Positions 1 through 44,106 of a stretch of 47,217 bases of DNA are shown here, in pieces. Origin of the DNA: a virus (lineage: Duplodnaviria > Caudoviricetes); IMG/VR virus record IMGVR_UViG_3300033067_002201, positions 1-47,217 of that record. One strand, given 5' to 3'. The notes under the pieces were generated by a model that ran no database searches, was not told the DNA's origin, and saw nothing but the letters and a program-made list of their open reading frames with translations. The stretch's first letter is position 1; each line of letters opens with the position of its first letter. Position numbers and translations under genes: made by a program.

Positions 1-848
1 GTTCATATCCGACAGTCGAGCATGCAGTAGTCTGCGGCACAGGCCCGAGCCTTGGCAAGGACTATCAGAAGCTCAGGGAAAAGCAGGAGTGGGACAGGAA
101 GGACAAGGAGAAGCACACGCTGATCATTGCCAATCATTCGAATCTCGCGACCCTGCTGTTCGAACACATCCAGCCTGATCTGGTGATCGTCACTGATTCA
201 GGCGAGCCGACCTACAACCGCATGAAGCGGGACGTATTGCCCCACTTCAAGCAGGATCTGCGGAAGGCCGGCACCTGCTTCATCCTTCCGACCCACGCAA
301 GGCCTGACCTGTTCAGGCTGTTGCTCGACAACAAGATGCCAGTCTACACGTTCCTGTCCATGCTGAGGACGCCGGAAGGTGACGACTTCGCCAAGCTGTA
401 CAATGATGCGTTGTTTGCAATCATGGACGGCAACAAGGAAGTGCTCCACACATGTATCCTGCAGGCTGGATCGGTAAGCAATGCCGCTGTCCTGCTCTGC
501 AATGCGCTGAAGCTTCTGAAGAAGGCACCATCGCTTGAGCATGTGTCACTCTCGGGTGTTGATTACAGTTATCCGAACGGCATCACCCGGTGCAAGCAGG
601 TAGTATGGAATGCGGAAGTCCGCGACTGGGATGTGGATGAGTATCCCACGTTCTTGGGCGAGGAGATCAGGCGCATCAAGTACAATCGCATGGAGACAAG
701 CGAAGAACAGATGGCGTACTACCGTGACTTGAGGTTCATCTACTGGAACCTCGTCGAGCAGGTGAAGGATGTCGACCGCATCTTTGAAATGAGCACGACG
801 ACAGACAATTTCATTGCCGACTTCCTGCCTGTCTACCCGCTATGCTAG
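1..848 (+). CDS. Maf_flag10/DUF115 (MptE-like, motility-associated-factor glycosyltransferase-like) protein, 3' part
   Basis: Frame is open from base 3; motifs AVVCGTGPSL, PDLVIVTD, AGSVSNAA and LSGVDYSY match the DUF115/Maf pattern. Confidence 0.7.
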   Translation, partial: SYPTVEHAVVCGTGPSLGKDYQKLREKQEWDRKDKEKHTLIIANHSNLATLLFEHIQPDLVIVTDSGEPTYNRMKRDVLPHFKQDLRKAGTCFILPTHARPDLFRLLLDNKMPVYTFLSMLRTPEGDDFAKLYNDALFAIMDGNKEVLHTCILQAGSVSNAAVLLCNALKLLKKAPSLEHVSLSGVDYSYPNGITRCKQVVWNAEVRDWDVDEYPTFLGEEIRRIKYNRMETSEEQMAYYRDLRFIYWNLVEQVKDVDRIFEMSTTTDNFIADFLPVYPLC

Positions 849-1171
849 ACGACTACTACCAGCGGAAGAACGACCAAGGCAAGCTCGCTTGGGACTTGCT
901 TCCACTCGATGCACTCGAAGGCATCGTAAGGGTGCTTGAGTTCGGCGCAAGGAAGTATTCAGCGGACAGCTGGAAGCAAGTCGAGAACGCCGGCAGGCGG
1001 TACAAGGCGGCGATGCGGAGACATCAGGTAGCCATCGACGCAGGGGAGATGATCGATCCTGAGACAGGCTTGCCCCACATCTATCATGTGGCATGCAATG
1101 CAATGTTCCTGTGCTGGTTCGAGGGAAAGGAGACAAAGGATGGGCAAGATAAGTCCGCAGACAAGACGTGA
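842..1171 (+). CDS. dATP/dGTP diphosphohydrolase (DUF5664 family)
   Basis: KNDQGK-WDLLP-ALEGIVRVLEFGARKY-W...DPETGLPH-H-ACNAMFL signature. Confidence 0.9.
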   Translation: MLDDYYQRKNDQGKLAWDLLPLDALEGIVRVLEFGARKYSADSWKQVENAGRRYKAAMRRHQVAIDAGEMIDPETGLPHIYHVACNAMFLCWFEGKETKDGQDKSADKT

Positions 1172-5112: not shown

Positions 5113-5480
5113 AATGGTTGCTATTGGCCTTGCTGTTTGTATTCGCATTGATGTCGGCGACTTCCCAAACCTTGTGGCCGGAAGCGTTGCCTGAGCCAGT
5201 GGTCAAGCTGGTTGACAGGCTTGTGTTGCCTGATCCGCTACCTGCTGACCAGCAGGAAAGTCCATATACACCCACTATATATGAAATGAAGAATGCTTTG
5301 CTCTATCAGTCAGGGTACAGGCTGTTGTATGGATATGTGAATGAAAGCCTGATCCCTTACGTCAACCAGTTGGGTGAGCAGTACAACCGCTTGGTGTTCA
5401 GGAACAAGTTGTTGCTCGTCGGTGGATTGTTTCTGGCAGGAACGACAGCAACGAGCCTGCTTTTGCTGGCGGGCAGATGA
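5109..5480 (+). CDS. exported protein with signal peptide and C-terminal TM
   Basis: MKWLLLALLFVFALMSATSQ signal; C-terminal LLLVGGLFLAGTTATSLLLLA; ATGA overlaps on both sides. Confidence 0.65.
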   Translation: MKWLLLALLFVFALMSATSQTLWPEALPEPVVKLVDRLVLPDPLPADQQESPYTPTIYEMKNALLYQSGYRLLYGYVNESLIPYVNQLGEQYNRLVFRNKLLLVGGLFLAGTTATSLLLLAGR

Positions 5481-8155
5481 GCAAGCTGGTTCGGTTCGAG
5501 CGCACGAAGAGCAACTGCAAGGACTGCCCCCTGAACGGCAGGAACAAAGTACAGTCAGCGTGCGGAATCGAGAATCCTTCTCTGGTGCTGATAGGCGAGG
5601 CACCGGGTGAGGACGAGAGCAATGGCGAGGAACAGTTCCAGTGGGAGGACAGGCGTGCGTTCTTGGATCGACCCAAAGGCCCCTTCATCGGGCCGTCTGG
5701 TGGAATCCTCAAGAGTGCGCTTGGTCAGGCCGGCATCATGTGGCATACAGTATGGCGAATGAACGTGATCAACTGCCGTCCGGCAGGAAACGATATCAAG
5801 AGTTCGGAGGCGAAGGATGCGATCGAATGCTGTAAGGCAGGGTTCGAAGAAGAACTCGCTCATCTCAAGGGAAGGCAAGCAACCGTTCTTGTTCCCGTTG
5901 GAAACACAGCCATGTCAGCCCTTGGCTTGGATGGCACTGTCACGAAATCAAGAGGTAGCGTATATAGTGTCCCTCGGTTCGGAGGAGTTGCACTGCCTAC
6001 CTACCACCCTAGTTTCATTCTTCGTGGAGCAATCAGGGAAGAAGCTGTGTGGGTCGCCGACCTCAGAAAAGCAAGAGAGCTGAGCTTAAAGAAGTGGACA
6101 CCGCCGAAGGAGAACTTCAACATAAGGCCCAGTCTTAAGGATGTGAAGGCATTCATCAAGAAGGCGATCGATGGCAAGCTGTTGGTCGCCTGCGATATTG
6201 AAACGGATGGTGGGTTTTCTGCTGACTACAACTCGATCACGATGATCGGCCTCGCGTTGAACGGAGAGGATGCACTGGTCGTGCCCTTTCAGCAGGGTGG
6301 CGCGAATGCAAGGAAAAAATACTGGTCGATGGAAGAGGAAGTCGCGGTCAGGAAGGAACTCCAGAAGCTGTTCAATGCCTGCCCGTTCATCTTCCAGAAC
6401 GCGTTGTTCGATGTATACCATATGGCGATGAAAGGCCTGACCGTCAAGGATGTCAGGCACGATACGATGCTGTTGCACCACGCGATCCACCCGGAACTGC
6501 CTCACGACCTTGGTTACATCGTCAGCATCTACGGCAACACACCCTACTGGAAGGACGTAACCAAAGGCTCGAAGGCGCGGATGATCGAGCAGGATGAAAC
6601 GATGATCAGGATCTACAACGCGAGGGATACAGTCGTGTTGCACCAGATCATCGAGCCTATGCTTGAGGATCTCAAGGATGTGGGAACGGAAAGGACGTAC
6701 TTCGACTGGTCGATGAAGCTGGTCTGGCCGCTTGTCAGGATGAAGATGAATGGCATCAAGTGCGATGTGAAGCAGATAGCGAAACTGCAACGCAAGCTGA
6801 AGAAGGAGTACGATGAGTATGAGCATCAACTACGAACAGATCTGGATCTACCTGCCTCCTTTAATTTTGACAGTAATTTTCATCTCCTGTATCTTCTATA
6901 CGGGAAAAAACCTGTTACGCTGGATCGCAAGATCGCTGAGAAACTCGAGATCGAAAGCTCTGAAAAGCGTAGCAAGACGACCAAGAAGTATCTGGAACTC
7001 TGCACGTCCATAGAACCGTACCTGAAGGTGAAGCCGCTTTACCGCACCAAGTCCAACGCAAGCAACTGCGACAGCGAGGCGATGCTATCGATCCAACAGC
7101 AGGCGCTTGGCAGGCTGGAAGCGATCGAGTACCTGAAGCGTGCGACAGCAGAGCATGCGTTTGAGAAGGCACAGATCCAGAAGCTGTTGAAGTTCATTGA
7201 AGTGTTCAGCAAGTTCTCGGAAGTAAGCAAGATGCTGGGCACGTATACGAAGTACCCGATAGCGAAGGATGGCCGCGTTCATGGCGACTTCAAGATCCAT
7301 GGCACTGCTACCGGCAGGTTGTCGGCGAGCAATCCGAACTTGCAGAACCAGCCGAAGTCAGTACGGACGGTGTTCGTGAGCGAACCCGGCAAGGTGCTGG
7401 TCGAGGCGGACTATTCGAATCTGGAACTGAGGGTGCTTGCGTATATGACCGAGGAGCCGTACCTGATCAAGGCTTTCGCCGACTATGATGCAGGCAAGGG
7501 GCCGTCCATACATGTGATGAACTGCAAGGCATTCTGGGGAATCGAGAAGGATGATCCAACATGGGAGAAGAAGTACAGGGTGACAAAGTCTGTGATTTTT
7601 GGATCGAACTACGGAGGTGGCCTGCAGGGTCTTTACCGTCGTGCGATGGCAGATGTCCCCGGGATGGATCTGAGCTTTGCCCGTTTTTCGGAGATAGTGA
7701 ACGGGTACTTTGCAAAGATGTCAAAGTATTCGGGGTGGCAAAGATCCATACGTGACACAGTCACAGGCAGGAGCAGGAAGGAGGAGAGCTGGGGTGGTTT
7801 GCGCTGGATAGCCAATGCGTTTGGCAGGAAGCGGTTCTTCCTTGGTGCGATCGAGGAGATCGAGAGGGAAGCGCTCAATACTCCCATTCAGGGTACTGCC
7901 GCCGACATAGCAGGTGCGGCCCTGATCAAGCTCGACAGTGAACTGCTGAAAGATCCCAAGCTGGAAGCGAAGCTGGTCTGCATGGTACATGATTCGATAC
8001 TGGTCGAGTGCCCGGCAGGCAAGCAGGATGAAGTGTCGAAGGTCATGCGGAAGTGCATGGAGCAGGAGTTCACGATCAACAAGGTGAAAAGGAGTTTTCC
8101 TGTCGATGTGAAAGTAGGTGTCAACTGGTACGAGATGATTGAAAAGGACGAGTGA
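5477..8155 (+). CDS. family A DNA polymerase with N-terminal uracil-DNA glycosylase (family 4-like) and 3'-5' exonuclease domains
   Basis: UDG: CKDCPL, LIGEAPG, NVINCRP, TYHPS; exonuclease: DIET, QNALFD, YNARD; polymerase: TGRLS, ADYSNLELRV, K-VIFG-NYG, NTPIQGTAAD, VHDS. Confidence 0.95.
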   Translation: MSKLVRFERTKSNCKDCPLNGRNKVQSACGIENPSLVLIGEAPGEDESNGEEQFQWEDRRAFLDRPKGPFIGPSGGILKSALGQAGIMWHTVWRMNVINCRPAGNDIKSSEAKDAIECCKAGFEEELAHLKGRQATVLVPVGNTAMSALGLDGTVTKSRGSVYSVPRFGGVALPTYHPSFILRGAIREEAVWVADLRKARELSLKKWTPPKENFNIRPSLKDVKAFIKKAIDGKLLVACDIETDGGFSADYNSITMIGLALNGEDALVVPFQQGGANARKKYWSMEEEVAVRKELQKLFNACPFIFQNALFDVYHMAMKGLTVKDVRHDTMLLHHAIHPELPHDLGYIVSIYGNTPYWKDVTKGSKARMIEQDETMIRIYNARDTVVLHQIIEPMLEDLKDVGTERTYFDWSMKLVWPLVRMKMNGIKCDVKQIAKLQRKLKKEYDEYEHQLRTDLDLPASFNFDSNFHLLYLLYGKKPVTLDRKIAEKLEIESSEKRSKTTKKYLELCTSIEPYLKVKPLYRTKSNASNCDSEAMLSIQQQALGRLEAIEYLKRATAEHAFEKAQIQKLLKFIEVFSKFSEVSKMLGTYTKYPIAKDGRVHGDFKIHGTATGRLSASNPNLQNQPKSVRTVFVSEPGKVLVEADYSNLELRVLAYMTEEPYLIKAFADYDAGKGPSIHVMNCKAFWGIEKDDPTWEKKYRVTKSVIFGSNYGGGLQGLYRRAMADVPGMDLSFARFSEIVNGYFAKMSKYSGWQRSIRDTVTGRSRKEESWGGLRWIANAFGRKRFFLGAIEEIEREALNTPIQGTAADIAGAALIKLDSELLKDPKLEAKLVCMVHDSILVECPAGKQDEVSKVMRKCMEQEFTINKVKRSFPVDVKVGVNWYEMIEKDE

Positions 8156-18398: not shown

Positions 18399-18850
18399 TT
18401 CCTCCCTTCAAGCACATACAGGTTGCCGTCCCATGTCCGTCCATCGGAAGCAACAAACCAGTCAAATACCTTCCGTTCAAACCTGAAACCCAGATATCTT
18501 TCAACGTACCTGTTGACTGCCTTTTGCCCTACTGGAACTATACACTCAATCCTCGGAAGGTGGAAGCGCACGCCCAGCAAACACATCGCACCCTTGACCC
18601 AGTTACTTTCCCTGAACACCGAAGGCGACCAGAACACCCCATGCACCAACGCCCGTTCATGTTCGACCAGATCGGTCACACGCCCCAGTCCGAACCCGAA
18701 ATCGCAGATCAAGTTACTCGTCCTGAGCGTATCGTCGAACGTCCGGAAATCAGGAGCCTCGAAGTCAGTCCAGAAACTTCCGGTCTTTCGTATCCTTTCC
18801 CAAGCAAACATTGCAGTCTCGGGCATATACGGAACCCAGTTCATTCTCAA
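18395..18850 (-). CDS. GNAT-fold acetyltransferase-like protein
   Basis: RIECIVP---KAV-RY-ERYLGFRFE motif; typical position after the nozzle gene. Confidence 0.6.
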   Translation of the reverse strand: MRMNWVPYMPETAMFAWERIRKTGSFWTDFEAPDFRTFDDTLRTSNLICDFGFGLGRVTDLVEHERALVHGVFWSPSVFRESNWVKGAMCLLGVRFHLPRIECIVPVGQKAVNRYVERYLGFRFERKVFDWFVASDGRTWDGNLYVLEGRN

Positions 18851-20928
18851 GCTCTGTGTCCACCATACGTGAGTTCCGATCCCGACAGCCTCACCCGCAT
18901 GCCATGTTCACTGATGATATACTGGCTCGCCGGCGGTGTACCTGACACCGTGCACTTGAACCTGAACGTACTACCCACTGCCCTGAAACTGACCCAACCT
19001 TCATCCCTGTTTTCAGGAATATAGATGTTGCCGCAGTTCTTCCAGCTTGTTCCCCGGTTGGTCGAGACAAGCACATTGACGATCAACGGGTTGTTGCCGG
19101 CCGGAACACTTCCACCGTTACAGTCAACCTTTATGTTGAAGCCGGTCACTACCTTGAGCGAGTCTGGCATATCGAAATCATAGTCCTTCGTCTCGAATTG
19201 TGGAACAATCGTCACTGATGCCCGGTCAAGACTCTGGTTGTCATCGACCTGCCACAACCTGCCCGCACCCTCATAGTAGATTGACCGCACCGTCGAGCCG
19301 GCCCGCATGCTGTCCCAGCTTGCATACACGCTACCCAGTCCATCCCAAGTATTGCCTGCCAGTCCGTCCCAGCTCAGGCTATTGGTAACGACCGGATTCG
19401 CTATCATATACGTCTGGATGTCGTCGTAACTCCATGCCTTCGCCCTGTACTCGTAACTCCACACCTTCGCAACATAATCCGCATCGGTTGGAAAACCAAA
19501 CAGGATCCTGAACCGTTGCGGATCAGCCTGCACACGCACGCATTCTGTTTTCTGGCATGTCTTCAGCGTCTGCTTGTGCACAGGCGAACCGATCCGCTCG
19601 ATGCCCTGCGTAGTCAACAGATAAATATCATCCTGACCTACAAAAAAGTGCGCTCCCAGCCAGCTGATGACAGCTTTTGGCCCGACCAGACCGACACCAC
19701 CTGTCTCCACTTTCTGGAACTGCAACGGCAACAGCGGATTGTTCGTCGGCGTTCCCATGAACACGGCATCGCCGAAGTATGCGATCAAAGTATCACCAAG
19801 CGGAACCAGCCTCAACAGCGGTGTCGACGTAAAAGGCAGATCAAGGTAATTCGTCGGAATGCTAAAGTCAGTCACATCCGCAAGTGCACTCCACCTGATC
19901 CTCTGCCGCTGGCTACCATCAACCGAATCCACCGTCTGTCCAGCCCATGCCCTGTTCATGAACCCACAACAACAAGCCGGAACAAAGTCAATGCCCGCAG
20001 TCGTAAGCACCCTATAGGTTGCACCCGCACACACCGGTATGAATCCCGGGTTTGCCAGTGTCATGCTTGTCGTACTTGCCACTGCCGCAATGGTATCCCT
20101 GTACGCATACCCTCCCACCGTCACTTCAATGATCTTACCAACCCACGTGGCACCCGTCACCCAAGTCGTTCCGGCACCGGTCAATGTACCAAGCGCACCG
20201 ACAGCCACCGTCACCGTACCAGTCGAGTACGTAACGGTTTCCGTCTGCTTTATCTTCTTCTTTACGTCCGTCGTCCAATACCCAAGCGTTCCCCCCAGTG
20301 GATCATACTTGAGCATCGCACGCTTCCCGTCCGCAATCATCATATAATTGTTGAGCATATCAAACACGGGCTGACTCGCCGCGCCGGGAGAGAACGTTCT
20401 TTGTATCGAGTACGTCACACCTGCCCTGTTCACCAGCGTACCGACGCTCCTGAGCACGATCGACGTAGAACCGCTGACCGTGTCGATCACCGCTTCGCCG
20501 TCAGCCGTACGTAATATGTCGCCGGGCAGGATGTTGTTGGTTGTCCAAGCGGCACCACCTGCGCCCGTGACCGACGTTCCGCTGATCGTCACCGTCCCTG
20601 TCGTGTACGTCCACAGCACTTCGGCTATGCCAGTCGAAAGGTCCAGCACATACAGGTTGTTGCGCGTTATGATGATCAGCTTCTGCAAGCCGTCCGTGCG
20701 CCACACCGCGATCATGTCGCTGGGCGTATAAGGGATAAGCTGGTTCAAGCCAAGTGTACCCGAACCCGGGCGTCTGACGAGGCCTTCCGGACCCGCGATG
20801 AAGTCCTTCACCAATAGGAACGCACCATCAGGCAACACCTGAGATGGCGCATTCAACAGCATGCCCTTGGCAAGCGGCCGTATGAAGACACTCTTCACGC
20901 TTGTGGGCTGGAAGACCGCGTCACTCAT
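18847..20928 (-). CDS. tail nozzle / stabilization protein (P22 gp10, T7 gp12-like)
   Basis: N-terminal GL--RPG, RIRWSALAD, FFVGQDDIY, C-terminal ETKDYDF...FRFK; beta-rich; position. Confidence 0.8.
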   Translation of the reverse strand: MSDAVFQPTSVKSVFIRPLAKGMLLNAPSQVLPDGAFLLVKDFIAGPEGLVRRPGSGTLGLNQLIPYTPSDMIAVWRTDGLQKLIIITRNNLYVLDLSTGIAEVLWTYTTGTVTISGTSVTGAGGAAWTTNNILPGDILRTADGEAVIDTVSGSTSIVLRSVGTLVNRAGVTYSIQRTFSPGAASQPVFDMLNNYMMIADGKRAMLKYDPLGGTLGYWTTDVKKKIKQTETVTYSTGTVTVAVGALGTLTGAGTTWVTGATWVGKIIEVTVGGYAYRDTIAAVASTTSMTLANPGFIPVCAGATYRVLTTAGIDFVPACCCGFMNRAWAGQTVDSVDGSQRQRIRWSALADVTDFSIPTNYLDLPFTSTPLLRLVPLGDTLIAYFGDAVFMGTPTNNPLLPLQFQKVETGGVGLVGPKAVISWLGAHFFVGQDDIYLLTTQGIERIGSPVHKQTLKTCQKTECVRVQADPQRFRILFGFPTDADYVAKVWSYEYRAKAWSYDDIQTYMIANPVVTNSLSWDGLAGNTWDGLGSVYASWDSMRAGSTVRSIYYEGAGRLWQVDDNQSLDRASVTIVPQFETKDYDFDMPDSLKVVTGFNIKVDCNGGSVPAGNNPLIVNVLVSTNRGTSWKNCGNIYIPENRDEGWVSFRAVGSTFRFKCTVSGTPPASQYIISEHGMRVRLSGSELTYGGHRA

Positions 20929-20932
20929 CCGT

Positions 20933-21163
20933 TCAACCCTTCTTCAATCCGTTGACAAGAGCTTCCCACTTGGAAGCGAACCTGAGTCCGACTACCAAGA
21001 ACCACCCCAGCACCGTCATCACGAAACCACTGAGGCCGACTGTATCCTGCACCCTAACATACAGGAACGTGACAACGACCATTACCACGACCTTGACACT
21101 GACAAGTTCGGTGATTACGCGGCCAAACCTAGAGAACAGCTCAACAAAGAACTTCTTCATCAT
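20933..21163 (-). CDS. putative holin (76 aa, two hydrophobic segments)
   Basis: MMKKFF... start after GGGAGG; VSVKVVVMVVVTFLY and GFVMTVLGWFLVVGL; basic C-terminus; near the endolysin. Confidence 0.6.
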   Translation of the reverse strand: MMKKFFVELFSRFGRVITELVSVKVVVMVVVTFLYVRVQDTVGLSGFVMTVLGWFLVVGLRFASKWEALVNGLKKG

Positions 21164-22157
21164 TGCCCTCCCGCATGTAGTATTCCTTCGGCTTCCAGTC
21201 CTTCTTCTTCGAGAAGAACATATTGTAGTAATCCTGATGATAAAACAGCGGCTCGCCTGCCGGATCTGCCCTGAACCGTACCTGACCCTCGAAGCCCAAT
21301 CCTGTATATGCGAACGAACAGACATCGCACGGCTGATGGAACACACCCGCGTCCTGATCCGACCTCAGCTTGCAGATACTCTCATTGTTGTACACCTCAA
21401 GCAGGCTCTTGGTATCAGCCGAAACCTTCCCGTAACTGAGCATGCCTTGGTTCGCCACCTTGTCGTTGTACGCGCACGGCACACACGTCCCGTCCCACCG
21501 GATGACCATGAAGTTCCGGTCGAAATACTGGCACGGATGCCGGCGCATGCTCACCTCGTTCTCATCCTTCAGTGGCTTGCCCACGCATACATAGTCCGCC
21601 GGATGCTTTCCGCCAAGCCAGTGCATCACGTACTCTTCGATCTCCTGCCAGTCCTGTCCGCGTTCGCAGATCTTGACTGCGACATCCTTCTTCGAACCCT
21701 GCAATCTTTTTATAACCAGCAACCGCTCGACGTTCGTCACCAGCAGATGCTTGTTCGTTCCCGGCCTAGCCAGTTCAATGCTGTCCGAACCCGGTACGCC
21801 ATCCATGCTGATGATCAGCTGATAGCAGGTACTTTGATCGGAAAGCAAAAACTCAAGCAGTTCCTGATTCCAGATGGTCAGGTTGGTCGTCACGTAGAAC
21901 CTCAGTCCCAACGTTGACAGATACTTCACCATCTCGAGATAGTTCCTGTTCATGAACGGCTCTCCGTTCATCCAAGGAATCACCACCGTCTCAGGCATCT
22001 CTTTCTTGACAAGGTCTGCTACGTTCTTGAACATCGCCAGATCCATGTCACCGACCGGAAAGTCCTTGTTCTGGACATTCGGGCAATACTTGCACTGCAG
22101 GTTGCACCTGCTCGTAACCTCAAGTATCACCTGCTTCGGAACCTTCAAAACTCCCAC
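21141..22157 (-). CDS. radical SAM protein with SPASM/twitch domain
   Basis: CNLQCKYC, MNGEP, TTN, ISMDG; C-terminal PCQY...IRWDG-CVPC...GKV...PCDVC. Confidence 0.9.
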   Translation of the reverse strand: MGVLKVPKQVILEVTSRCNLQCKYCPNVQNKDFPVGDMDLAMFKNVADLVKKEMPETVVIPWMNGEPFMNRNYLEMVKYLSTLGLRFYVTTNLTIWNQELLEFLLSDQSTCYQLIISMDGVPGSDSIELARPGTNKHLLVTNVERLLVIKRLQGSKKDVAVKICERGQDWQEIEEYVMHWLGGKHPADYVCVGKPLKDENEVSMRRHPCQYFDRNFMVIRWDGTCVPCAYNDKVANQGMLSYGKVSADTKSLLEVYNNESICKLRSDQDAGVFHQPCDVCSFAYTGLGFEGQVRFRADPAGEPLFYHQDYYNMFFSKKKDWKPKEYYMREGNDEEVLC

Positions 22158-22174
22158 CCTTTTCCCCTTCTCCC

Positions 22175-22654
22175 CTACGCTATCTCATAATGCGGGCTGT
22201 CTTTCTGTTTCCCCGGAAAGTCCGCTCCGCAACGCAGGCCAACCTGCAATCCGATCCTGTGCAGTTCCTCCCAGATCGCCTCCGGCGCATTCCAGTCAGG
22301 ACTGTTGCCGTCCTTCGAGGGCGCGGCATCGAATGCCTTCCCTTCCAGATGCTTCGAGTCCAGCGTCCATGTGCTCGGTCTTGCCGTTTCGCTCGGACTG
22401 ACCTGCCACAACCCGGCCTTCTGGAACGCCTTCTGGATCCACTGCGCACTGCTCATTCCGTCCTCTGTCCGTGCTACAAACCGTCCGCGCATCGCGTACG
22501 CCATCTGTACCGCCAGATCCCTGAGTGTCTCAAGCAGTATAACCTTGTATCCGGCTTCCCGCAACACTTCGCTTTCCTCGCACATGCTGAGGAAGTCCTC
22601 GCACTTCACCTGACAGGCAGGCACCAGCAATTCCACACTTCTATGTATAGACAT
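22175..22654 (-). CDS. endolysin, peptidase M15 (L-Ala-D-Glu endopeptidase-like)
   Basis: ETLR---Q---YA-GR, SKHLEGKAFD, W--L---G---GL-CG-DF, DSPHYE. Confidence 0.85.
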   Translation of the reverse strand: MSIHRSVELLVPACQVKCEDFLSMCEESEVLREAGYKVILLETLRDLAVQMAYAMRGRFVARTEDGMSSAQWIQKAFQKAGLWQVSPSETARPSTWTLDSKHLEGKAFDAAPSKDGNSPDWNAPEAIWEELHRIGLQVGLRCGADFPGKQKDSPHYEIA

Positions 22655-22663
22655 TGTCGATCC

Positions 22664-23017
22664 CTACTTGAGCAGTGCGATGAGTGCGACCATTACGATG
22701 CCAAATACCTGTATCCATTGAACGACCATAAGCTGTTTGCCCTTTTCCTTTGTCACCGTCATTTCAGCTTCCTCCGCTTTCCTCTCGGCCAGATATTCAC
22801 GGAACGCCTGCAAGCCCAAGCATGACGACTCACGTGTGTCCTCATAATGCTTGATCTTCACTTCTATGTCATCGACCCTGCTTGCCAAACTGACCACCTC
22901 CGAACGCTTTCCGTTCTGCTTGTCCGGTCCCCACCAGTCAGTCGAGTGTTGCCTGACTTCCGTCCAGAGCTTGGCGAGATCTTCCCTTGCCTTCAAATCA
23001 ACACAGCTGTCATCCAT
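22664..23017 (-). CDS. coiled-coil protein with C-terminal TM (lysis-associated?)
   Basis: C-terminal VVQWIQVFGIVMVALIALLK; immediately upstream of the endolysin. Confidence 0.55.
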   Translation of the reverse strand: MDDSCVDLKAREDLAKLWTEVRQHSTDWWGPDKQNGKRSEVVSLASRVDDIEVKIKHYEDTRESSCLGLQAFREYLAERKAEEAEMTVTKEKGKQLMVVQWIQVFGIVMVALIALLK

Positions 23018-23025
23018 ACGTGCTC

Positions 23026-23631
23026 CTATAGGTTGCCGACCTTGACGATGCTCAGGTACGAATAATCACGTGATCCATAAAGGCTCTTCGATCCAGCATT
23101 GCTGTGCATCAACTGTGCCTGCAATATATCATTCTTCTTGCAAGGTACCACAATCGCTCCACGACACCACCAATGTGCGTTCGCGGTTGAAACCACCGTA
23201 AACCTGTCAAGAATGAAGCCTACCCCCGAAGTCATATTTGCGAGGTTGTACCAGATAGTTTCACTCGCGACCCACACCGATGCCTCGAACAATACAAAAC
23301 TATTGACTGAGTACAATCCATCCATTGGTATCTTGTAATCATACGTGTTCGGCTTGATTCCACCATAGTTGTCAAAGAGTATTGTATCCCAAGCGATCGC
23401 CTTAAAGGTAAGGCCGGTAGCGATTGCGAAGGTATTGCTACGTCCTACCAACGCATAGGGTGTCTTCTCCGTATACCTGAAACCAGCTTTCGGTGTAAAG
23501 AGTGTCTCACCCTCAGCATTGAAGTTATAGTCAAAGAAACTAGGCCACTGCCCCTTGTCAAGCATCGGCCCCCTGACCTGCCCGGGCGACAAGGCATACG
23601 TACCATTCCTTTGGTCACTCACTTCAACCAC
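23026..23631 (-). CDS. C1q/TNF-like domain protein, candidate receptor-binding protein
   Basis: I-WDTILFDNYGG...Y-IP-DGLY-VN...KKND-L-AQL...YSYLSIVKV matches a C1q-like jelly roll; true start may be GTG at 23622 (GTGA overlap). Confidence 0.65.
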   Translation of the reverse strand: MVEVSDQRNGTYALSPGQVRGPMLDKGQWPSFFDYNFNAEGETLFTPKAGFRYTEKTPYALVGRSNTFAIATGLTFKAIAWDTILFDNYGGIKPNTYDYKIPMDGLYSVNSFVLFEASVWVASETIWYNLANMTSGVGFILDRFTVVSTANAHWWCRGAIVVPCKKNDILQAQLMHSNAGSKSLYGSRDYSYLSIVKVGNL

Positions 23632-24962
23632 CGGTCATCAGACCTTAACCTAAACCCCAGCCGGTATGCCTTTGCTTCAAGCCGCTCAATTCTCAACCTT
23701 GCAAACAACGGCAACTTCTTTTTTGCCGCATGACAGTAATACAACAGGCACCCGATGCATTCAATGGTGCAACCACCGGAACCAAGGTACTGGCAACCAT
23801 CACAACAAAATTGTGTACAGCTTCCAAGACAGGGATTGTACTTGTTCCGGAAAGCCAGTGCCTGCTTTATCAAACGGTTACCAGCGCGTTTTATCGCCAC
23901 TTCCGGTTTTCCTACCGCACACAAACCCCTGTATATCTCAGTCAAGGTAATCGTATATGGATCTTTTTTGGCATTCAGGGATTCATTCCAGCAAATATGG
24001 ATCGGAATCACATACTTGACCAATTCAGACAACCAACGCGGCAACCACTTGATCCTGTAGCGGGATGGATCACAGTAGCCTACAGCGCGTTCGACCGCAT
24101 CCTCGTCAAACACAGGTTCATTTTTTATATCACCTATGCAGTGTAGGGGATTGCCAACCGTTTCATGGCAACTATAGAACTTTCCACCTTCAACATCGTA
24201 ACTGAGAAAGTTTGCTCCCGCATGGCAAACATCCAGTCCACAGTACCTGCCATCGGAATCACGCATGTTTCTCACATTCACCTGCATCATTGGCGGGAGT
24301 TTGTTACGCATCCGATAGAAAGCCCTTATACCCAATACCTGCTTTAACTCAGGTTTCTTGAAAATATGTTCACATTCAAAACCATACCTCAGACCTTCAG
24401 GAGCATCGGCAAACAGGTTTGGCAAGCCATCCACAAACTTCCTATACCCATTGATCGGGATAACCCCATGGATGGTAACCGGCAAACCATCGGCACGGTA
24501 CTTCCGCAAGTTTCCCATCAGCAGGGTATAGCTTGCCCTTCCATCCTTGAAGCTCCGGTTCTTGTCATGGGAAGGTGCATACCCGTCGACAGTAAACTGT
24601 ATCGTATCAATAATCCGATGGTACTCCACCATCCAAGGCAGGTAAACGCTTCCATTGGTTATAAAACCAACACGTACGTTCAACCGGACACAACAATCAA
24701 GCAGTTCCCTGAGCGGCTCCGGTGTTATAAACGCTTCACCACCCATGATAACCAAATGGTTGAACTGCCTATGCTCTTCCAAGAACACATTAAATGCCCT
24801 GAGATTCTCCACATTCACGGGATTGTTGTCGTGTATTTCCCGCTGGAAACAATACGGACAGTCAAAATTACACGCATGTGTCAATATCACGTAAAGGCTG
24901 AGCTTCTCCACGTTTTCAGTATTGCATGCCGGACATGCCTCATTGACCGTCACATCGCTCAT
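23619..24962 (-). CDS. radical SAM protein (anSME/SPASM-type maturase-like) with extra Cys-rich C-terminal domain
   Basis: CNFDCPYC, MGGE, ITNG, TVDG---HDKNR---G--SY; CHAG...YSCH...IGDI; tail NPCLGSCTQFCCDGCQYL...GCTIECIGCLLYYC. Confidence 0.9.
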   Translation of the reverse strand: MSDVTVNEACPACNTENVEKLSLYVILTHACNFDCPYCFQREIHDNNPVNVENLRAFNVFLEEHRQFNHLVIMGGEAFITPEPLRELLDCCVRLNVRVGFITNGSVYLPWMVEYHRIIDTIQFTVDGYAPSHDKNRSFKDGRASYTLLMGNLRKYRADGLPVTIHGVIPINGYRKFVDGLPNLFADAPEGLRYGFECEHIFKKPELKQVLGIRAFYRMRNKLPPMMQVNVRNMRDSDGRYCGLDVCHAGANFLSYDVEGGKFYSCHETVGNPLHCIGDIKNEPVFDEDAVERAVGYCDPSRYRIKWLPRWLSELVKYVIPIHICWNESLNAKKDPYTITLTEIYRGLCAVGKPEVAIKRAGNRLIKQALAFRNKYNPCLGSCTQFCCDGCQYLGSGGCTIECIGCLLYYCHAAKKKLPLFARLRIERLEAKAYRLGFRLRSDDRWLK

Positions 24963-25438
24963 ATACAGTCCGCACAGAAACTGCAGGTCGTTGCTGGGTT
25001 ATACGTGTACGTCTTGCTTGCCAGCACTGTCGAGCACCTGCGGGAATTGATTTTTCCAAGCACATCAACCGACCTTGTACCGGATGTGGCAATACTTGTA
25101 CCAGCAACTGCCGTCGCCACACCAAGTGAAACAGTAGTCAAATTAGGTGATGCCCACGTTTGGGTGTTTGCGTTCAGCGGATCCCGTATCTTTGTATTGA
25201 AGTCACTTGCCAGTATCCGGGCATTGGCACTCGGCCCTGCCGGACTGGCCGACAGGAAAAAGTTCGACCGCCATCCATCGACAGCCGCCTTCAATGAAGA
25301 CCAGAACGTAGTTGTCATGCGTTGCGTACCACTCGTCGTCCAATGTCCGGAACAACTTCCAACCGACTCACAGACACTCGAACAAACCTTGGCGCAATCA
25401 GTGACACAGGCGCAGACTGTAACACAACTACAACTCAT
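24959..25438 (-). CDS. Cys-rich protein (CxC/CxxxC repeats), putative radical SAM substrate and virion component
   Basis: 8 Cys in the first 29 aa; ends in CSFCADCI; ATGA overlap with the radical SAM gene. Confidence 0.75.
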   Translation of the reverse strand: MSCSCVTVCACVTDCAKVCSSVCESVGSCSGHWTTSGTQRMTTTFWSSLKAAVDGWRSNFFLSASPAGPSANARILASDFNTKIRDPLNANTQTWASPNLTTVSLGVATAVAGTSIATSGTRSVDVLGKINSRRCSTVLASKTYTYNPATTCSFCADCI

Positions 25439-25441
25439 CTA

Positions 25442-25834
25442 TCACCCCCACGTAGCATAGCCAGAACTGTCAATCGCAACACGTCCGGCAACCAAAACAC
25501 CGTTGGTCCAGAAACTGGCCCAAGCATTTCCCTTCCAATACTTCAGATCACCAGTCGACACTTTAAGCCACACCCGGCCTACGTCATACGTCGAATCAAG
25601 TGCAGTTACTCCATCAGGTTTGGTTGTTGGCGTAGACTCACCGATATAGATTTCCGCTGAACCCATCTTGTGCCAGCCATCCTCCGCCAGCAACCCGCTT
25701 GATAGGTTCATCGTATGCTCTTTGATGACCCTTTCACGAATGGCACCTTTGAACTCTCTTATCTTGTTATCGCCGATGCTTGGATCATCCGCACCGGCAG
25801 GTGTAGCCTCATAAGCAGTATTCCATGTAGCCAT
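25442..25834 (-). CDS. short tail fibre / fibre-anchor protein
   Basis: N-terminal P---D----GD--IR--K--I-ER---EH attachment-like segment; G-VWL--STG-LKYW-G-AW fibre motif. Confidence 0.6.
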   Translation of the reverse strand: MATWNTAYEATPAGADDPSIGDNKIREFKGAIRERVIKEHTMNLSSGLLAEDGWHKMGSAEIYIGESTPTTKPDGVTALDSTYDVGRVWLKVSTGDLKYWKGNAWASFWTNGVLVAGRVAIDSSGYATWG

Positions 25835-25837
25835 CTT

Positions 25838-26812
25838 CTACCCCCACACCGTCATGCCGGACTGCTCTTCATCCAGCATCATCTCGCCTTGGTTCCTCAA
25901 GGTCTGCATCAACTCCTGCAGATCCCGCTTGGTCGCATACGCCCCATTGAAATCCTGCTCCCTCATCTGGATACTGTGCACCGCCCACTGCACCACTGCC
26001 TCATGGAACGGTCTCGGCAAACCCAACACATCATTGACCGTTGCCAGCGACTGCGGATGCGCGTAATACAACATCTCGTAGCTTCTTCCAAGATCCCAAG
26101 GACTGTCAAATGTCACCCTGTTTCCTTCGACCATATACAAACTTGGAATAGCCTTCGTCAACAGCGTACTTGTAAACAGTTCCGTATGTTTCGGCTGAGC
26201 AAGATCAGTCCCTGAAATCAAATCCCTGATTCTCAACACATCGGCAACGTCATCGACCAGATTCCCGATCGCCATGAAATCATCGACACTACCTGCGACC
26301 GGAACCGGAACAAACTCGAAAAACCTCTTGTACAACCTATACGTCCATGTACTGTCAGGAACCACATCCCAGTCCTGATGCACCGTCAGCACACTGTTGT
26401 CGGCAAGATCACCCGTACACCGTATCACCAGTCGTTTCTGCAACTGCAGACCAACCGAATCAACTACTTCGACTACCCAGCCGGTAAACTGCCCGTTCCT
26501 GTTCAGTGGATTGAAACCGTCCACATTGATGCTGTCGACCGTTCCACTCAGCACATCACCCGCCTTGAGCGCGAATGCCTTCCAGTACAAGTTCTTGCGC
26601 AGATGCTTGAACCTGAGTATCGTCCCGTCCGGATACTCCCAGTTCGCGATCCTCACGATCGCTTGGTTGATCCATTCCAGAAGCGGAGTCGCGCCCGGCA
26701 CACCCAGCGTCAAGTCAAACGTTGCAGGATCCCCCGGCGTAACGTACGGGCAAAGATCGGACGGTTCACCCGATAGCTGGAAGACCTTCGTCATCATTTC
26801 CCGTACTGTCAT
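25838..26812 (-). CDS. head-tail adaptor (T7 gp11-like) with inserted beta domain
   Basis: MTV-EM---V--L-GE...WINQA...P--Y...YYA-P--L-----LP--FHEAVV--A; position after the capsid genes. Confidence 0.7.
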   Translation of the reverse strand: MTVREMMTKVFQLSGEPSDLCPYVTPGDPATFDLTLGVPGATPLLEWINQAIVRIANWEYPDGTILRFKHLRKNLYWKAFALKAGDVLSGTVDSINVDGFNPLNRNGQFTGWVVEVVDSVGLQLQKRLVIRCTGDLADNSVLTVHQDWDVVPDSTWTYRLYKRFFEFVPVPVAGSVDDFMAIGNLVDDVADVLRIRDLISGTDLAQPKHTELFTSTLLTKAIPSLYMVEGNRVTFDSPWDLGRSYEMLYYAHPQSLATVNDVLGLPRPFHEAVVQWAVHSIQMREQDFNGAYATKRDLQELMQTLRNQGEMMLDEEQSGMTVWG

Positions 26813-26814
26813 TT

Positions 26815-27120
26815 TCAGTTACCGCCCATGTACACAAGCGCGACAGTCCCTGCCGGATTGCTCGCATGCGATTTGAACCCGCCAGCCGTCCAGATCCCAC
26901 ACGGAATCTCCAGTGCCAAGCTTGAGTTACTCTTCAAATACGCTTCGAAAATCGGCTGGCCCGCACCAGTCGCACCTTCATTGATGATTACCACGCCGGG
27001 CGTAGTCCCTACCGTCACCAGAAAGGCCTTGACCTTCGCGTTGGTCAGCGGATTTTCAAACACTTCCTGATCGCCGGGTGCCCCCAGCCGTACCACATCA
27101 GCAGTCCTAGTCACCGCCAT
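26815..27120 (-). CDS. hypothetical virion protein
   Basis: Start MAVTRT with TAATG overlap; beta-rich. Confidence 0.6.
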   Translation of the reverse strand: MAVTRTADVVRLGAPGDQEVFENPLTNAKVKAFLVTVGTTPGVVIINEGATGAGQPIFEAYLKSNSSLALEIPCGIWTAGGFKSHASNPAGTVALVYMGGN

Positions 27121-43515: not shown

Positions 43516-44106
43516 ATGAAACTCTACAAAGGCATCCGCGCCGACATCGCGACCAAGGCTGTTGACTTCTATATTCCCCGCACCCACTCGGACGATACCT
43601 ACAAGGCGCTCGCTGACGACCTGTGCAGGGATGTCATCAGGCGAGACATGATCGATCCGGCACTGCTCAAGTTCTGGGACGAGCATCCTGAACTGCGTGA
43701 GTCCTTCAACACCAACAGGGATGTTAGGATCGCATTCAGGAACAAGGAACCAAGCGGCTACTTCAACTGGTGGGAGGGTGGCAAACACGTCATCCTGAGC
43801 CAGCCCCTGCCTGCCATCTGCGGTTTCTTTGACCTCAGTATGGAGGATTACCCCAACATCTGCCTCCGCTTCAAGGAAGAATCAAAGCTCGATGAGCAGA
43901 ACAAGGACAAGCGCAAGGCTCTCAAGGAGCGGCTGATGGACGTGCTCAACTCATGCAACACCAGTAAGCAACTGCTTGAGATCATGCCTGAGCTGGGTCA
44001 GTTCCTTCCTGTCGAGGGCAACCCTGCTCCTGTCCCTGTCAGTGTCTACGAGAACCTCAAGCGTGACCTGCAGATGCTGGCACAGCAGAAAGAGCAAGCG
44101 AGCTGA
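43516..44106 (+). CDS. Nmad5-like (nucleotide modification-associated domain 5) protein
   Basis: C-terminal L--VLNSCNT-KQLLE--PEL--FLP motif. Confidence 0.6.
   Translation: MKLYKGIRADIATKAVDFYIPRTHSDDTYKALADDLCRDVIRRDMIDPALLKFWDEHPELRESFNTNRDVRIAFRNKEPSGYFNWWEGGKHVILSQPLPAICGFFDLSMEDYPNICLRFKEESKLDEQNKDKRKALKERLMDVLNSCNTSKQLLEIMPELGQFLPVEGNPAPVPVSVYENLKRDLQMLAQQKEQAS

Follow-up and report, generated by a model that had tools for sequence, protein, structure and literature searches.

A cysteine-rich protein gene coupled to a radical SAM gene at the tail-fibre locus of a podovirus-type phage: a candidate virion-maturation cassette

The virus record IMGVR_UViG_3300033067_002201 of IMG/VR (Duplodnaviria; Caudoviricetes), a whole, linear virus sequence of 47,217 bases that is 96% complete and is called the window here, carries a four-gene cassette at its tail-fibre locus (23026..25834, minus strand). 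The cassette encodes a short fibre anchor, a 159-residue Cys-rich protein (CysP, P0001), a 447-residue radical S-adenosylmethionine (SAM) enzyme (rSAM1), and a predicted C1q/TNF-like knob, and the initial annotation had proposed it to be a system that matures a virion protein in the manner of peptides that are made on ribosomes and modified after translation (RiPPs). We find that the cassette is real and conserved, and that it would present known chemistry in varied form and in an undescribed viral setting. In the interpretation that we favour, held with roughly even confidence, rSAM1 forms Cys thioether crosslinks in CysP and the product joins the tail tip. The parts are firmer than the whole: rSAM1 quite probably acts on CysP, thioether chemistry is probable given that it does, and we have good confidence that CysP has a place in the particle.

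The four tightly packed minus-strand open reading frames (ORFs) are real at their annotated positions, with products of 130, 159, 447, and 201 residues. The anchor (25442..25834, minus strand), identified by homology to the N terminus of a fibre of phage BK063670, contains no Cys. CysP (24959..25438, minus strand), the putative substrate, has a folded core of about 100 residues, a cysteine at position 135 (C135), and short Cys ladders at both ends. rSAM1 (23619..24962, minus strand) matches Pfam PF04055 (E 7.9e-12), and the knob (23026..23631, minus strand) matches phrog_15750. Inspection of the junctions confirmed both overlaps that had been described, an ATGA shared by the CysP and rSAM1 genes and a knob ORF that overlaps the rSAM1 stop; the knob likely starts at the GTG at 23622, which gives a GTGA overlap comparable to an ATGA in a sibling locus (L005). 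A second possible rSAM1 start, the GTG at 24911, agrees with the start in L005. The first 17 rSAM1 codons (24911-24962, minus strand) encode a CPAC motif that is absent from the L005 orthologue, and the C-terminal ladder of the window CysP is shorter than in its relatives; with the extra CPAC codons, this junction may have shifted. Read-through from the anchor into CysP was considered and rejected as a conserved mechanism because the window has the two in one frame behind TGA-TAG and L005 has them in different frames. The GC content at third codon positions (GC3) in the window is 0.49-0.57 across the four cassette genes versus 0.59-0.77 in 10 other genes of the operon.

The coupling of the two central genes recurs in L005, the one confirmed locus out of 120 pattern matches in a single metagenome scan, where diverged CysP and rSAM1 genes again lie side by side. 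L005 comprises, in order, an adaptor, a 130-residue anchor, a 173-residue CysP, rSAM1, a knob, a holin-like gene, an endolysin, a second radical SAM gene (rSAM2), a membrane protein, and a nozzle. Identity between the window and L005 within the cassette is 74% for the anchor, 45% for CysP, 37% for rSAM1, and 36% for the knob. Elsewhere it is 59% for the endolysin and 67-68% for rSAM2, the holin-like genes hardly align, and the adaptor is 62% identical across its C-terminal 181 residues; adaptor, anchor, endolysin, rSAM2, and the start of the nozzle together span 59-77%. The cassette diverges in the manner of a tip module.

CysP contains Cys clusters at both ends, as initially annotated: its 12 cysteines comprise eight in residues 3-29, C135, and three in the last eight residues. 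Eight cysteines in the first 29 residues have a binomial P of about 7e-12, compared with 0.6% Cys in 14 other operon genes. The first Cys is residue 3, and the earlier statement that no leader precedes it was borne out. The likeness to CxxxC-repeat peptides held for the presence of Cys repeats but not for their form, as the spacing alternates between 2 and 4 with no pure CxxxC, and residues 15-26 form a CxxVCxxVCxxV motif. An AlphaFold2 model of CysP had a predicted template modelling score of 0.66, with local confidence scores (pLDDT) of 63-89 by block in the core and below 50 at the ends, and a helix predicted at residues 8-20. The model looks like a compact monomer with three helical segments and not like a fibre; a place in the particle is suggested by gene position and by viral Atlas neighbours. 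In the Atlas, viral proteins make up 89-100% of the three closest clusters, which have scores of 0.88-0.90 and serve as a lead only. A three-fold internal repeat (pseudo-trimer), suggested by the three model helices, was not borne out, with profile probabilities of just 0.4-5%.

Word and profile searches identified 18 further proteins related to CysP, making a family of 20 with P0001 and the L005 protein; P0010 was dropped as a repeat artefact, and P0012, P0014, and P0015 were excluded as near-copies. The ends are Cys-rich in nine members, and in the other 11 they are His-x-x-His/His-x-Ser arrays rich in Ser and Asn. When ends and Cys motifs were removed, the cores of the two groups still matched each other (profile-profile probability 98.3%, E 1.3e-14). 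Scored against the profile of the opposite group, every one of the 20 cores also surpassed 1000 shuffles. The two groups are separated by one branch, with support of 100/99 in a 17-row tree that omits three long or short rows and 89/88 with all 20. Eighteen of the 20 members contain a motif of the CxxVCxxVCxxV type, which precedes the core in 8 Cys-tailed proteins and follows it in 10 His-tailed ones. Among individual members, the Cys motif that is usually N-terminal lies at the C terminus of P0021, like a circular permutation; the His-tailed P0021, P0022, and P0024 start at or within the core; and P0017, P0018, and P0019 are hybrids in which a His array is followed by a Cys-rich end. The replacement of disulfides in an anaerobic cytoplasm, which had been offered as the purpose of the modification, would not account for the 11 relatives with His-array ends.

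The exchange of Cys for His on one core bears on a different explanation, in which CysP would be a tail protein that chelates metal (Zn or Fe-S) through Cys/His ends that remain unmodified, and rSAM1 would act elsewhere or only load the metal. Cys and His are both metal ligands, the three-Cys motif of 18 of the 20 members suits a four-Cys clasp joining both ends, and a YkgJ-like Cys domain is fused to rSAM1. This explanation, which we regard as unlikely if the least so of the alternatives, leaves unaccounted for both the bias toward Asp, Asn, and Glu three residues after Cys and the coupling of CysP to an enzyme nearest to thioether-maturase profiles.

We scored that bias in the free tails of eight Cys-tailed proteins against 72,945 shuffles. 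Of 95 Cys+3 positions, 54 held Asp, Glu, or Asn, compared with a shuffle mean of 24.7, and 0 of 72,945 shuffles reached 54, a figure that overstates certainty because the repeats and the kin proteins are non-independent. Val occupied the position in 17 of 95 cases, a count reached by 37 of the 72,945 shuffles, and no enrichment of Asp, Glu, or Asn was detected at Cys+4 (12/57). The target motif of anaerobic sulfatase-maturating enzymes, (C/S)x(P/A)xR, occurs in none of the nine Cys-tailed proteins. The C-x-x-(D/N/E/V) pattern of the ladders resembles the motifs that CrpC crosslinks in CrpA, whose modified units are given as ACAGM, CAVD, PCAGD, and CPLVL, two of them narrowed to CAGM and CPLV (PMC13692751).

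A modification of CysP by rSAM1 other than a thioether is also conceivable, namely C-C bond formation on Val (a cyclopropane, as made by TvgB), epimerisation, or a change like that of the HXS system. Val predominates at Cys+3 in the window CysP, TvgB cyclises Val in repeats, the His-tailed branch needs a different chemistry (HxsA bears a +8 Da change), and rSAM1 lies outside all curated families and is without the second-cluster motif. The Cys spacing and the acidic or amide residues at +3 in the relatives nevertheless match thioether substrates, and we judge such other chemistry improbable.

rSAM1 is a member of the radical SAM superfamily, with CxxxCxxC at C31/C35/C38 and a PF04055 score of 46.1 bits against a cut-off of 29.5; the Foldseek matches of its model, which is poor (pLDDT 42), include radical SAM structures. 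The top NCBIfam profiles, all far below their cut-offs, were PapB (59.5/340 bits), TIGR04463 (CrpC; 54/525), and CefB (53.3/600), and the L005 enzyme likewise ranks PapB first (81.5/340). HxsB (26.4/370) and HxsC (22.2/267.9) also scored below cut-off. That PapB, TIGR04463, and CefB are Cys-thioether maturases argues for thioether formation by rSAM1. For comparison we used 77 full-length bacterial relatives, taken from the best 80 of at least 338 confirmed loci. Consistent with the absence of a RiPP recognition element (RRE) reported earlier, CxxxCxxC starts at residue 31 (16 in L005) versus a median of 101 in the 77 relatives, only 1 of which has its motif start below residue 50.

The description of rSAM1 as SPASM-type was correct for the first SPASM half only; Pfam SPASM gave no match, and the second half is lacking. 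The half SPASM (residues 236-345; 23928..24257, minus strand) contains the first auxiliary-cluster hairpin, in which C246 and C265 align in 79/79 rows. It scores 21.2 bits to a first-half profile and aligns to residues 344-386 of CteB, and C324 is the third Cys common to L005. It is followed by a fused C-terminal domain (residues 345-447; 23622..23930, minus strand) with eight Cys common to the L005 orthologue and, as a lead only, a likeness to YkgJ/CxxCxxCC proteins. In the Atlas this domain resembles stand-alone viral proteins of 116-162 residues (feature score 0.91-0.92, template modelling [TM] score 0.60-0.65); the nearest named family is PF03692 at 0.80, with a TM score of 0.47 to a cluster with 27% PF03692, and Pfam gave no match at E<=5. 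Two other identities for the domain, a fused substrate and a displaced SPASM half, were disfavoured: its eight Cys are conserved, it has stand-alone viral look-alikes, and against the second SPASM half 468 and 411 of 500 shuffles score as high. MAFFT, in a forced alignment, puts five of the domain's Cys on second-cluster columns, which leaves a displaced second half a small probability.

The second enzyme, rSAM2 (21141..22157, minus strand; 338 residues; PF04055 and PF13186), lies between the endolysin and the nozzle and was overlooked in the initial annotation. It occupies the same place in L005 (4475-5473), shows a twitch-type Cys pattern (C209, C228, C277, C280) and a sub-threshold spiro-SPASM match over 250 residues, and is absent from the complete long-fibre relative; a role as a second modifier alongside the cassette is possible. 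We consider it very improbable that rSAM2 modifies CysP in place of rSAM1, or that both enzymes and an MptE-like/Maf gene serve a sugar or small-molecule pathway. rSAM2 is well conserved and syntenic, an MptE-like gene is found at 3-848, and the top Foldseek match of the weak rSAM1 model is the sugar-nucleoside enzyme BlsE; yet that model is poor, and it is rSAM1 whose gene overlaps the CysP stop, while the knob and lysis genes separate rSAM2 from CysP.

The cassette occupies the tail-fibre slot, as had been proposed, and replaces there the fibre body and chaperone of related phages. Comparison of 43 ORFs with Pfam and PHROGs, and of 20 more with Pfam, revealed no long-fibre gene, and partial tail-fibre PHROG matches were confined, among the ORFs scanned, to the 693-residue nozzle. 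In 50,697 GenBank phages the anchor had a single match, to the first 107 residues (31% identity) of a 385-residue protein of BK063670, a fibre whose gene sits after the adaptor and before a tail-fibre-assembly gene. A scan with an adaptor alignment led to five loci of the related lineage (L002, L007-L010), which represent few lineages, L009 repeating L002 (BK063670) and L008 repeating L007. In four of the five, the gene for a 379-440-residue fibre that shares the anchor comes first, and a chaperone-like gene and then lysis genes come after it; in the remaining locus the contig ends after 158 residues of fibre. PF04055 was found in none of four related records (one a complete genome, one 81% complete). 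From the anchor homology and the comparison of slots, one slot seems to be filled in either of two ways, by a short anchor with the cassette or by a long fibre with a chaperone, and the anchor is shortened exactly where the cassette occurs.

The designation of the fourth protein as C1q-like was upheld in part: the L005 orthologue matches PF00386 (E 1.5e-4) at 22.4 bits, just below the 23.7-bit cut-off, but the window protein has no Pfam match, and its sequence matches in PDB were weak C1q domains only (E 0.4-0.6). Since TNF-like knobs cap the tail needles of Sf6 and HS1, the knob could form the head of a needle instead of the tip of a fibre. This possibility suits an account in which CysP and rSAM1 form an inserted non-virion cassette, a host-acting effector of exclusion or counter-defence, and the tip consists of anchor and knob alone. 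The lower GC3 and faster divergence of the cassette fit that account, rSAM2 shows that the operon takes in enzymes, and HXS is a radical-SAM-matured effector that is non-structural. We think it quite unlikely all the same, given that CysP and rSAM1 are placed, in the window and in L005 alike, between the anchor and the knob with starts that overlap stops, that no signal peptide, leader, exporter, or protease is visible, and that the anchor is truncated exactly at the cassette.

Under thioether crosslinking, rSAM1 would link CysP cysteines to the residue at +3 (Asp, Asn, Glu, or Val). In such reactions, a 5'-deoxyadenosyl radical abstracts a hydrogen from the acceptor and the Cys thiol closes the S-C bond, with 2 Da lost per link (PMC13692751, PMC9413430). 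The three-Cys auxiliary cluster (C246, C265, C324) would hold the substrate thiol, the folded core of CysP would serve as recognition surface instead of a leader and RRE, and the fused eight-Cys domain may bind metal and substitute for the missing second auxiliary cluster. Within the tail, crosslinked CysP would probably rest on the short anchor or lie next to the predicted C1q-like knob. The product would remain intact and be incorporated into the particle ahead of lysis, and for that reason no protease or exporter would be required. The relatives lend this scheme further support, in that the same core bears His arrays in 11 of them, that 8 of 19 family members match HxsA4, and that radical SAM enzymes also mature HxsA.

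Several observations weigh against crosslinking, in addition to the non-independence of the tail repeats. The NCBIfam scores of rSAM1 amount to between a sixth and a tenth of the cut-offs, and those of viperin profiles are nearly as high. The second-cluster motif CxxC-x5-C-x3-C, present in 76/77 bacterial relatives, is lacking in rSAM1, and in a 44-row tree the window and L005 enzymes group apart from 39 bacterial rows on long branches. The CysP and rSAM1 genes were seen together in only two loci. The ladder of the window CysP is short, with Asp, Glu, or Asn at 1/4 scored tail positions and Val at 3/4, and its C-x-x-V spacing would also fit one face of the helix predicted at 8-20. The CysP model has no fold match at E<=0.001 in BFVD or PDB that would place it in the particle. 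The HxsA4 profile matches 8/19 family members and HxsA3 matches 3/19, matches that may stem from low complexity only; P0001 itself contains no HxS, a single His, and no HxsA match.

The genomic surroundings are known for 2 of the 20 CysP family members, and the other 18 are known as proteins. Neighbourhood searches of viral contigs with rSAM1 returned no family member and one unrelated NrdG-like match, and those of viral contigs with CysP, A4, A6, and A13, and of genome contigs with A6, returned no family member. A motif scan gave 122 loci from 21 of the 64 parts of the viral collection, among which there was no convincing match and no radical SAM gene near the motif. GenBank phages searched with CysP, the knob, P0017, and the rSAM1 C-terminal domain yielded no family member, and none of the 80 bacterial radical SAM loci contained CysP, anchor, knob, or that domain. 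Among 401 genomes of the G005 phylum no family member was found, and three matched the His array only. Two genomes of that phylum (L214, L216) encode HxsA4-like precursors with long His-x-Ser arrays, next to which, in one of the two, a gene starts like a radical SAM maturase. The GenBank "phage" scaffold MT836223 (L003, 615-3780) has two radical SAM genes around a 62-residue Cys/Gly-rich peptide, together with an ABC transporter and a TonB-type gene, and resembles a bacterial RiPP cluster.

The cassette lies in a minus-strand podovirus-type structural operon that comprises terminase, SU10-type portal, capsid, and SU10-type adaptor, followed by the four cassette genes. The head-tail adaptor gene (25838..26812, minus strand; Pfam SU10_adaptor PF24175, E 3.8e-10) lies immediately upstream. 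On the 3' side follow, in order, a gene that its terminal hydrophobic stretch suggests to be holin-like, an M15 endolysin, rSAM2, a small membrane protein, and a 693-residue nozzle-like protein; long genes past the nozzle, which have no family match, stand at the ejection-protein position. The nozzle and ejection labels are putative assignments from position and phrog_3287. The nozzle-like protein (18847-20928, minus strand) has inserted beta-rich repeats with partial tail-fibre PHROG matches and may aid host binding. One Logan contig (run X1) is identical to the window over 21000-27000 and is no independent confirmation, as it probably has the same source.

Elsewhere in the window, the gene at 3-848 (plus strand) encodes an MptE-like domain (PF01973, E 6.8e-12) and is open at its 5' end; the PF01973 family includes Maf flagellin glycosylation factors, so the phage may glycosylate a protein. 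A dATP/dGTP diphosphohydrolase domain (PF18909) is encoded at 842-1171 (plus strand), a fusion of a family A polymerase with a uracil-DNA-glycosylase domain at 5477-8155 (plus strand), and an Nmad5 gene lies at 43516-44106; together these three may point to DNA base modification. The spiro-SPASM and MptE-like matches hint at a spirochaete host, whereas the related record BK063670 names Methanomicrobiales.

If the favoured interpretation is right, radical SAM crosslinking, familiar in peptides of bacteria and in a small number of cellular proteins, would also be a step in virus-particle assembly, and phages could rigidify or chemically diversify the part that contacts the host in a way invisible to sequence-based host prediction. 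A leader-free and RRE-free crosslinker of a folded protein, perhaps acting at Val, would interest enzymologists. The system is small (a 159-residue substrate and one enzyme), and the His-tailed branch would tie Cys-thioether to HXS-type substrates through one common core. More tentatively, and with doubt outweighing belief, phages may build host-contact tips from radical-SAM-stapled proteins of a new fold with exchangeable arrays, written by enzymes, at its ends (ladders of Cys thioethers in one branch and His arrays in the other). The rebuilt enzyme would then work without leader or RRE, with the fused YkgJ-like domain as its second iron-sulfur site and Cys-to-Val links among its products, and the stapled ends would form a receptor- or metal-binding surface that replaces the long fibre.

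In the literature searched, the coverage of which leaves out most subscription papers, no account was found of radical SAM enzymes maturing a protein of the phage particle. The comparisons that follow draw on parts of the papers cited and also of PMC12801897, PMC3741392, and PMC9062424. Against the ranthipeptide maturases, rSAM1 falls short in profile score, RRE, leader, and full SPASM domain, and shares with them an adjacent Cys-repeat substrate with regular acceptors (2/2 loci). The podovirus fibre and assembly chaperone of the BK063670 lineage share the anchor domain, slot, and flanking order with the window; that lineage has the 379-440-residue fibre and chaperone, and genes for the Cys protein, a radical SAM enzyme, and the knob are absent from it. 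CrpC/CrpA of Methanococcus voltae (TIGR04463; PMC13692751) is similar in that a radical SAM enzyme stands beside a whole Cys-repeat protein with C-x-x-(D/Q/M/V) units and no peptide is released, and TIGR04463 is the second-best profile of rSAM1. CrpC, however, has an RRE and three clusters, compared with no RRE, a half SPASM, and a fused Cys domain in rSAM1, and in CrpA a leader-like part is N-terminal and the repeats are C-terminal, whereas in CysP repeats flank a central core on either side. The Crp system is cellular, not viral, and no mention of phages was found in the main text of PMC13692751 or three of its supplement files. PapB/PapA (NF047865; PMC9413430) and CteB/SCIFF are likewise comparable, PapB being the best profile of both phage enzymes. 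PapB/PapA makes Cys-to-Asp/Glu thioethers at a native CX3D motif, whereas the CysP family is enriched at +3 (CX2), not +4; unlike CysP/rSAM1, it requires a leader and RRE, and the phage enzymes score 59.5 and 81.5 bits against its 340-bit cut-off. QhpD/QhpC (PMC13692751) offers a parallel in which radical SAM thioethers stabilise a subunit of a larger assembly, although QhpC, a subunit of an enzyme, loses its leader by cleavage, and we found no sequence link to CysP. The HXS system (HxsA-D; PMC13128918; NF038313, NF038309) differs as a bacterial anti-phage effector made with two specific enzymes and HxsD, and it is comparable in that the His arrays of CysP relatives score against its HxsA4 and HxsA3 profiles and in having a protein matured by radical SAM enzymes, as is proposed for CysP.

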